Sequence record: PQ529420
Length of the DNA: 64,000 nucleotides
Strand: one strand, 5' to 3'
Source of the DNA: Escherichia phage Eryne
Of this stretch, positions 6,902-7,772 are shown piece by piece. Each line of letters starts with the position of its first letter. The stretch's first letter is position 1. Made by a program: the position numbers and the translations under genes. The notes under the pieces are model-generated. The model was not told where the DNA came from. It did not search any database and was given only the letters and a program-made list of their open reading frames with translations.

Positions 6902-7434
6902 TAACTATAACAAGAAATATAATTCGCAAGCGTATCATTAGCAGCCTATGCCGGACACATAGGCGGCTAATAATAACGCAACTACACACCCCACATAATA
7001 ACCATCACCGATAGTTATTATTTGTGTTTATGTAGCTTGCAACAATTGCAAGCGCAACAATATACATGGTATATTGTATCCCTTACATTGTTGCGGTGCG
7101 TTATTATTAGCTAATGTTTAGAACATTGGCTATAATATAAGCTAAATAATAAGCTATACAATAATAAACATCGTGAATAATGATGCTGATGATCATAATG
7201 CGCCACCTTCCAGGGGGGCGCTATGTGAACACAAAGAAATCTTTCTTGTCAAGAAAAATATTAACACTATTGCGCAAAATTATTTATAACTGAATAGATG
7301 ATTTTTCATACTATTGCCCCTAATTACTTACTATTTGTTGCAATGTATTCCCCCTATTTGTTGAGCCTATTCTCTTAAAAGCGCAATAAATCAGAATTAT
7401 CTTGATTTTTAGGTAGTTTTATAGTATAGAAAAT

Positions 7435-7456
7435 ATGCAAATGATAATCATTATCA
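7435..7456. promoter_or_regulatory. Fur-box-like palindrome TGATAATcATTATCA
   Basis: perfect 7-1-7 inverted repeat matching the core of the enterobacterial Fur box consensus GATAATGATAATCATTATC; just downstream of a TTGATT/TATAGA promoter-like pair. Confidence 0.4.
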
Positions 7457-7621
7457 GCTATCTTCCACGGGTGGCACTATTTCACGCCAGATCATTTCAT
7501 TTGGCAAGGTGTATATAGATGTTTAGACTTGCCAAGTTATTGATTTACTTAGAATTTATCTGTTTTGTTGTGAGTAGTACCTTTCTTGCTCAGAAAATAA
7601 TCAAAAGTCTTATAAGTCATT

Positions 7622-7651
7622 GAATGATAATGCAAATGATAATTATTCTCA
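7622..7651. promoter_or_regulatory. Fur-box-like GATAAT hexamer array (TGATAATtATTCTCA core)
   Basis: second copy of ATGCAAATGATAAT with 13/14 match to the 7-1-7 palindrome, downstream of a TATAAG -10-like element. Confidence 0.35.
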
Positions 7652-7772
7652 TTGATATTTGAGGGGGACGGTCGGCAGAAATCGGGGGGCGCTGAAAATC
7701 GCGTTAAGCACCTCTCGCAAGCGAGCAGTATTTTGCGGCAAGTTATTGATATTATTGGCTTTACGCTTATGA

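Follow-up and report, generated by a model that had tools for sequence, protein, structure and literature searches.

The DNA analysed here (the window) is a stretch of 64,000 nucleotides from Escherichia phage Eryne (PQ529420), and the elements in question are a set of sequences resembling the operators of the host repressor Fur (Fur boxes). All copies lie inside a 1.68-kb stretch without credible genes that runs from a terminator (6254-6272) to the first early gene; it is repeat-rich and has a G+C content of 31-33%. The start of this early gene is likely the ATG at 8012, which has a ribosome-binding site (AAGGAG, 8000-8005), and not the first ATG, at 7955, of its open reading frame (7955-8371); a promoter-like TTGTAA-17-TATGAT is found ahead of the gene at 7946-7974. 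The window is from a phi92-like virulent phage (Justusliebigvirus, Stephanstirmvirinae), and across this stretch the identity to phages of that type is 92-95%. The sites are as follows, with scores in bits taken from the Fur matrix described below.

6486-6504, no strand: box 1, AATGATAATCATTCTTATT, 24.6 bits (equal to the score of the ryhB site), 250 bp past the last right-end gene
6544-6562, no strand: box 2, AATGACAATCATTCTTAAC, weaker at 15.1 bits, 58 bp past box 1
7176-7200, no strand: degenerate Fur-like copy, matching the classical consensus at 14 of 19 positions at both 7176 and 7182
7434-7458, no strand: box 3, two overlapping sites in a 6-bp register, 19.4 bits (7440-7458) and 17.6 bits (7434), containing TGATAATcATTATCA
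7620-7662, no strand: box 4 array, core of 25.7 bits (7635-7653) with overlapping sites of 18.4 bits (7629) and 12.9 bits (7623)

Fur-type sites ahead of the early block

A first-pass annotation made from the sequence alone had drawn attention to two palindromes resembling Fur boxes. The first, TGATAATcATTATCA at 7442-7456, is indeed a perfect 7-1-7 inverted repeat, and its identification as a Fur box holds up well; the 19-mer at 7437-7455 agrees with the classical consensus GATAATGATAATCATTATC at 17 of 19 positions; matches to this consensus with at most three mismatches are expected 0.02 times by chance in 64 kb. The second copy (TGATAATtATTCTCA, 7637-7651, with extra GATAAT hexamers at 7626-7631 and 7638-7643) and the 14-mer shared with the first (ATGCAAATGATAAT, at 7435 and 7630) are also there, at a spacing of 195 bp and not the 196 bp given. 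Boxes 1 and 2 and the degenerate copy at about 7176-7200 had been missed. In a repeat search the core AATGATAATCATT, a perfect 6-1-6 palindrome, has further copies at 6486 (exact) and 6544 (one mismatch), and no additional site with up to one mismatch to this 13-mer occurs anywhere in the window. A family of 37-nt repeats (at 7180, 7435 and 7630) is common to the degenerate copy, box 3 and box 4; the degenerate copy is not within the window's 25 best matrix sites.

The Fur matrix was derived by an unseeded palindromic expectation-maximisation search for a 19-mer in 16 intergenic regions of Fur-regulated K-12 genes (fepA-fes, fepD-entS, fepB-entC, fhuA, fecA, fecI, cirA, tonB, exbB, fur, fhuF, feoA, ryhB, gpmA, oppA and acnA). 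The search converged on AATGATAATnATTATCATT, which is the known Fur motif in the single-dimer register of Chen et al. (2007), and after conversion between coordinate versions the best sites in gpmA and ryhB coincide with the 27.4-bit and 25.2-bit sites of those authors. The matrix is specific (all 16 hits of at least 18 bits in 150 kb of K-12 DNA fall in training regions), and with leave-one-out scoring the E. coli sites range from 8.2 to 25.0 bits with a median of 19.0. Scoring against such a matrix was the check that the first-pass annotation had proposed, and it bears the annotation out, with 25.7 bits for box 4 and 19.4 bits for box 3. The five top-scoring sites of the 64 kb all fall within non-coding DNA (6273-7955), and four sites of at least 18 bits are observed in the region where 0.03 are expected (0.2 per 64 kb) in composition-matched first-order Markov sequence.

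The resemblance extends to individual E. coli operators. Box 4 (AATGATAATtATTCTCATT) is the gpmA site (AATGATAATaATTCTCATT) except for the uninformative centre base; two positions separate box 1 from the ryhB site. The gpmA site is among the strongest in the genome and was shifted by 150 nM Fur in a gel shift (Chen et al., 2007). The box 4 array reads TTGAAT|GATAAT|GCAAAT|GATAAT|t|ATTCTC|ATTGAT|ATTTGA, and its sites overlap in a 6-bp register (7623/7629/7635), as do those of box 3 (7434/7440). This is the hexamer-array arrangement of overlapping Fur sites described by Chen et al. (2007), although it should be noted that the register is partly an automatic outcome of the motif's internal repeat. 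We consider it very likely that the boxes would be bound by Fur, because any iron-loaded Fur in the cell should occupy sites so close to validated ones.

To follow the boxes in more distant phages, diverged relatives were gathered by way of the neighbouring gp30.8-like gene (window 5855-6238), whose gp248-like protein is 59-80% identical in them. The boxes hold their position in these relatives, at about +250, +310, +1150 to +1250 and +1320 to +1440 past that gene, and while the letters of homologous boxes differ their scores stay at 15-25 bits. Homologs of box 1 (in L005, L010, L011, L016, L017 and L008) score 17-25 bits and those of box 2, whose conserved context is TGCATAATGCAAT followed by the box, score 16.3-21.5 bits (21.5 for AATGATAACCATTATCACT in L014). 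For box 3 the homologs in L011, L014, L016 and L017 score 15.2-24.8 bits despite five or six substitutions (24.8 for AATGAGAATGATTCTCATT and 20.1 for AATGAGAAGGATTCTCATT; P <5e-5 to 0.036 against random substitution), and homologs of the box 4 core score 19.7-25.4 bits (25.4 for AATGATAATGATAATCATT and 24.5 for ATTGATAATGATTCTCATT). Equal numbers of random substitutions would cut the score to 2-17 bits and the homologs do better (P for single comparisons <5e-5 to 0.13), with the caveat that each was scored in whichever register gave the highest value.

An alignment of five phages across the otherwise diverged repeat that contains boxes 3 and 4 (see below) leaves a short series of conserved islands: the cut-site blocks TGTTG^AGCC and GAAAATCGCGTTA^AGCACCTC; a −35-like TTGAYT; box 3; TTGGCA-17-TAGACT followed by TGCCAA...ATTGATTTA; and finally TAAGTnATTGAATG with the box 4 hexamer array and GATATTTGRG. 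The hexamer register of box 4 is kept in four of the five phages though the hexamers change, L014 deviating in the right half. The spacing between box 3 and box 4 is 185, 185, 195, 195 and 207 bp, which is about the same helical phase and would fit a joint complex on the two boxes. A hairpin or cruciform was rejected as the conserved feature, since the arms are not kept complementary in the homologs (in L011, AATGAGAAG-C-GTTATCACT, three of nine arm positions are mismatched); selection thus appears to act on the sequence of the half-sites and not on pairing, which points to protein binding. From the sequence comparisons the boxes appear to be selectively maintained Fur-type sites, most likely for the host Fe2+-loaded Fur repressor.

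The terminal repeat and its predicted promoters

The phi92 record carries an annotated 343-bp direct terminal repeat (DTR) at 1-343 and 148270-148612, and a 342-bp repeat has been reported for phage BME3. The equivalent in the window, a setting of which the first-pass annotation was unaware, is listed here with the promoter-like elements inside it.

7364-7706, no strand: direct terminal repeat, 343 bp, by end-to-end alignment with both annotated phi92 repeats
7684-7719, no strand: G-run GGGGGGCGCT and block GAAAATCGCGTTA^AGCACCTC over the right repeat boundary, the boundary being placed from phi92
7402-7430, + strand: P1, TTGATT-17-TATAGA, a doubtful weak promoter-like element just upstream of box 3
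7501-7529, + strand: P2, sigma-70-type TTGGCA-17-TAGACT, the only promoter conserved in the DTR (11.6 bits in five of five diverged phages, with diverged spacers)

As the phi92 repeats align to 7364-7706, boxes 3 and 4 lie wholly inside the DTR (repeat positions 74-92 and 269-287), and each would therefore be expected at both ends of the virion DNA. The records of several relatives stop at about window position 7340-7363. By homology to phi92 both boundaries are cut just before AGC, at ATTTGTTG^AGCCTA (7350-7375) on the left and at AATCGCGTTA^AGCACC (7694-7719) on the right. The right-hand block is invariant in the five diverged phages save for its first base, and the G-run is only partly conserved. 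Because the boundary blocks are among the most conserved islands in these phages, they are probably end-processing signals.

The first-pass annotation had placed both palindromes just 3′ of −10-like hexamers, where a repressor would block initiation. Such hexamers are present (TATAGA at 7425-7430, TATAAG at 7611-7616 and GATAAT at 7626-7631); none of them belongs to a conserved, well-scoring sigma-70 promoter. The proposed block to initiation is not supported, the sole conserved promoter, P2, having the boxes at about −87 and +108. P2 (in which the phi92 version has a perfect TTGACA) has a predicted start at about 7536 and points rightward to the early genes, so numbered that the centre of box 3 is at about −87 and the box 4 array at about +84 to +126. 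P1 keeps its −35-like TTGAYT in the five phages, and its −10 is TAYAGA or TATTCG, without the key terminal T; it did not reach the 4 bits above which the scan for conserved promoters reports a site, and on both counts it leaves an occlusion model unsupported. Promoter occlusion was accordingly dropped, as neither a generic scan nor a conservation-filtered sigma-70 scan puts a credible promoter on a box. The generic scan gave no excess in this region (12 sites against 12.3 expected in shuffled sequence), and P2-like promoters of the TAGAC type are not repeated across the window. The −35 of P2 (TTGGCA) forms an inverted repeat with TGCCAA just past its −10 (7501-7544), and the 12-mer CAAGTTATTGAT found after P2 recurs 206 bp further on, outside the DTR (7739-7750).

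A non-coding transcript, the other target suggested for the presumed regulation, gained nothing from the search for a structured RNA. An Rfam scan of 6000-8500 (E up to 1) was without match and the fold of the predicted P2 transcript (7536-7760) has z = +1.17, so that no stable RNA structure is indicated. The notion that box 4 is followed by a Fur-controlled small RNA resembling RyhB was given up, and an apparent hairpin, CTCGCAAGCGAG, is not conserved in the relatives.

Several other features flank the repeat. Between boxes 1-2 and the DTR are iteron-like direct repeats at 6705-6752, 6807-6852 and 6854-6904 (two copies 30 bp apart, two copies 26 bp apart and three tandem 16-bp units), and GC skew is locally reversed in 6001-7000. 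A non-coding block at 6934-7057 is about 80% conserved even in Phapecoctavirus phages, where it lies near the ends of their records; a perfect inverted repeat of 15 nt (GCTAATAATAACGCA at 6966-6980 and TGCGTTATTATTAGC at 7097-7111) has its left arm overlapping this block. Just right of the DTR AAAGGGGTGTGT occurs twice (7773-7789 and 7850-7866), with its core GGGGTGTG present once, inverted, on the left (6985-6994) and no further occurrence of the motif in the 64 kb.

Arrays elsewhere in phi92-like phages and in T5

The complete genome of a close relative, PaulScherrer, has 11 of its 12 best sites (at least 17.6 bits) in just two non-coding loci. One is the terminal region treated above. The second holds five sites of 17.9-26.3 bits within 115 bp (PaulScherrer 83005-83116; L031 33005-33116); its phi92 counterpart is 136983-137111, at a distance from the right end equal to 7.8% of the genome, and it would lie about 4.3 kb left of the window start, 11 kb upstream of the boxes. 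Ahead of this array come three or four tandem repeats of about 62 bp as well as AAAGGGGTGTGG, which is similar to AAAGGGGTGTGT. It is followed by a GC-rich non-coding block whose conservation extends to many related phage genera. In detail, L031 33226-33395 has a promoter-like TTTACA-18-TAGACG and then about 130 nt of GC-rich sequence ending in a hairpin (AAGCCC..GGGCTT) with a T-run, and in phages of Klebsiella, Cronobacter, Enterobacter and Pectobacterium the part at 33220-33345 shows 84-86% conservation; this block may be a conserved phage small RNA, although it has no Rfam match. For the second-array region Rfam returned only a spurious plant microRNA match.

A BLAST search with the second array found 351 phage records, essentially all of them from enterobacterial hosts, including T5-like phages, Vequintavirinae-like phages, Phapecoctavirus and RaK2. 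In Gostya9 the same motif is arrayed with a 23-bp period (L033 2464-2720). In T5 (AY587007) sites of 21.5, 26.3, 22.0 and 20.3 bits lie at 9473-9636 and are the annotated palindromes E, G, H and I together with direct repeat C. This array follows the terminators of the rightward pre-early operon and adjoins both the 7.9% nick and the calculated shear point of first-step transfer, 9618. The occurrence of one motif in unrelated phage families on the same hosts favours a host protein as the binder. No phage-encoded Fur was found: E. coli Fur as a tblastn query gave E > 3 in the window and in the whole PaulScherrer genome, and neither the seven annotated or candidate early DNA-binding proteins nor the product of the first early gene has a Pfam match.

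Readings of the arrays and comparison with known systems

Our preferred reading, held tentatively and at a little under even confidence, is that Fur modulates rightward transcription out of the genome end according to iron supply. In iron-replete cells Fur dimers would sit on the boxes, with more than one on the box 4 array, and the bound Fur would modulate transcription running rightward from the genome end into the early block; in the simplest form this would be a roadblock at box 4, a complex of box 3 with box 4 that encloses P2, or a combination of the two. Under iron shortage the sites would be empty. The sites form a set confined to two non-coding regions, each ahead of small rightward genes. 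What the sequences show is the match to the Fur motif, where the sites lie, their conservation and their placement with respect to P2; we infer Fur as the binder, activity of P2, and the direction and size of any effect. Activation, by displacement of H-NS from the AT-rich repeat DNA, is conceivable as well, since distal action of Fur has precedents at fecA, ftnA and hilD.

Several observations weigh against iron-dependent modulation. Both boxes are clear of the −35 and −10 of any credible promoter, unlike the sites of most Fur-repressed genes, although such overlap is usual and not universal, Fur acting at a distance being documented for ftnA, hilD and fecA. The second array and the T5 array are without an evident promoter or downstream gene and look like multi-site platforms rather than operators. 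The argument from helical phase comes down to three independent values (P ~0.06 by our own estimate), per-position conservation tracks the information of the matrix weakly (rho 0.24, P 0.32 for box 3 and rho 0.49, P 0.03 for box 4), and the flanks of box 4 are better conserved than box 4 itself. Finally, there is no apparent reason why a virulent phage should hold back its early transcription in iron-rich conditions.

Arrays without promoters or downstream genes would suit a sponge, and it is possible, if unlikely, that the sites act as a decoy, with replicating genomes soaking up the Fur pool and so derepressing host iron uptake and RyhB to feed iron-dependent phage enzymes. Counting the overlapping registers of boxes 1-4 and the five-site array, one genome unit holds about 13 dimer sites, and an E. 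coli cell has some 5,000-10,000 Fur molecules, a number comparable to 100-300 genomes carrying 13 dimers each. Among the phage's own enzymes are class I and class III ribonucleotide reductases, which require iron, and titration of Fur by multicopy plasmids is the established principle of the Fur titration assay (FURTA). However, a sponge needs neither conserved positions, nor the phasing of box 3 with box 4, nor placement in the DTR, and within a short lytic cycle a late rise in iron uptake may no longer matter.

Another possible role is architectural: Fur or another abundant host protein would build a nucleoprotein complex on the first-entering or terminal DNA, serving in arrest or pacing of entry, end protection, concatemer processing or replication and not in gene regulation. 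The promoter-less arrays and the injection-stop setting in T5 suggest such a role. The boxes lie inward of the DTR's two conserved cut sites by 74 and 56 bp, the T5 array adjoins the 7.9% nick and the calculated shear point, 9618, and the second phi92-type array is 7.8% from the right end and neighbours the tandem 62-bp repeats. Nevertheless we regard this architectural role as distinctly unlikely: Fur has no known role in packaging or injection, the match of 7.8% with 7.9% may be coincidence, and two-step injection is nowhere demonstrated in phi92-like phages.

The binder could also be a phage protein, or a host protein other than Fur, with a Fur-box-like specificity. The phage has many small early proteins, several annotated as putative DNA-binding, without a Pfam match, and the phage sites prefer GAGAAT/ATTCTC where E. 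coli sites prefer GATAAT/ATTATC. Yet the GAGAAT/ATTCTC form is also that of the strongest E. coli sites (gpmA, ryhB and fhuA), and iron-loaded Fur would compete for such sites in any case; the match spans all 19 matrix positions and reproduces individual validated Fur sites, and the motif is common to Stephanstirmvirinae and the T5-like Demerecviridae, which are different families on the same hosts. On balance a binder of this kind is improbable. That the boxes have no function, being by-products of AT-rich repeats and of duplicated −10-like GATAAT (a near-consensus −10 hexamer) in a promoter-rich region of low G+C, is hardly credible given the excess of sites of at least 18 bits over simulation, the scores kept through five to seven substitutions and the confinement of sites genome-wide to two loci.

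A broader proposal, which we offer as a long shot, is that Fur-box arrays are a shared cis-element of terminal or first-entering non-coding DNA in unrelated large virulent enterobacterial phages, its scope taking in the phi92-like DTR and 7.8% array, the Vequintavirinae-like phages, RaK2 and the T5-like phages together. Host Fur would have been recruited to incoming genome ends to serve an architectural or sensing function, and if so it would be part of the T5 injection stop signal and would link infection to host iron status; the injection-stop palindromes of T5, made of the same motif, would then offer a concrete host factor for a question more than 50 years old. Overexpressed iron-uptake genes are reported to protect E. 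coli from T5, an effect that the authors credit to Fur repression of fhuA; this agrees with ideas of a Fur array without testing them. Should Fur bind, a virulent coliphage would be reading or manipulating the host's iron sensor from the first DNA to enter the cell. Iron is limiting in the gut, which is the habitat of these phages, and phi92-like phages are considered for therapy. The literature searched yielded no report of Fur boxes in a phi92-type DTR, in the control regions of lytic phages, as a conserved feature at the genome ends of strictly lytic phages, or in the injection-stop region of T5, and no transcriptomes or mapped transcript starts from phi92-like phages.

Set beside known systems, the finding is of an ordinary type of operator in an unusual, conserved and possibly widespread phage context. 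The phage boxes share with chromosomal E. coli Fur operators (of the gpmA, ryhB, fhuA and iucA type) the same 19-bp motif and the same 6-bp overlapping register, but they sit in the terminal repeat and other non-coding DNA of a virulent phage, off any credible −35/−10 and without an iron-related gene downstream. At ftnA, where Fur displaces H-NS, and at hilD, where it acts from far upstream, the Fur sites lie tens of base pairs upstream of the promoter in AT-rich DNA, like box 3 at about −87; the box 4 array in contrast is downstream of the start, and the likeness covers the position of the site only and not H-NS binding or activation. FURTA likewise places high-affinity Fur sites on a high-copy replicon, but it is a laboratory assay and no known phage strategy. 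Fur boxes, a textbook element of bacterial iron regulons, have been described on phages for a few cargo genes of prophages, as with sitABCD on lambdoid coliphages. These too are host Fur operators carried by a phage, but they occupy the ordinary promoter positions of accessory genes that prophages express, whereas the boxes described here are multiple and lie in the genome-end region of a strictly lytic phage. The cargo gene stx1 is another with a Fur box. There is a likeness in arrangement to the palindromes in the left repeat of T5 (the injection-stop region), which have the same motif (AATGAGAATCATTATCATT is identical in T5 and PaulScherrer) and are likewise non-coding, tandem and within a terminal repeat; that repeat, however, is 10 kb long and carries the pre-early genes, against 343 bp here, and the sources searched interpret the T5 array without reference to Fur.

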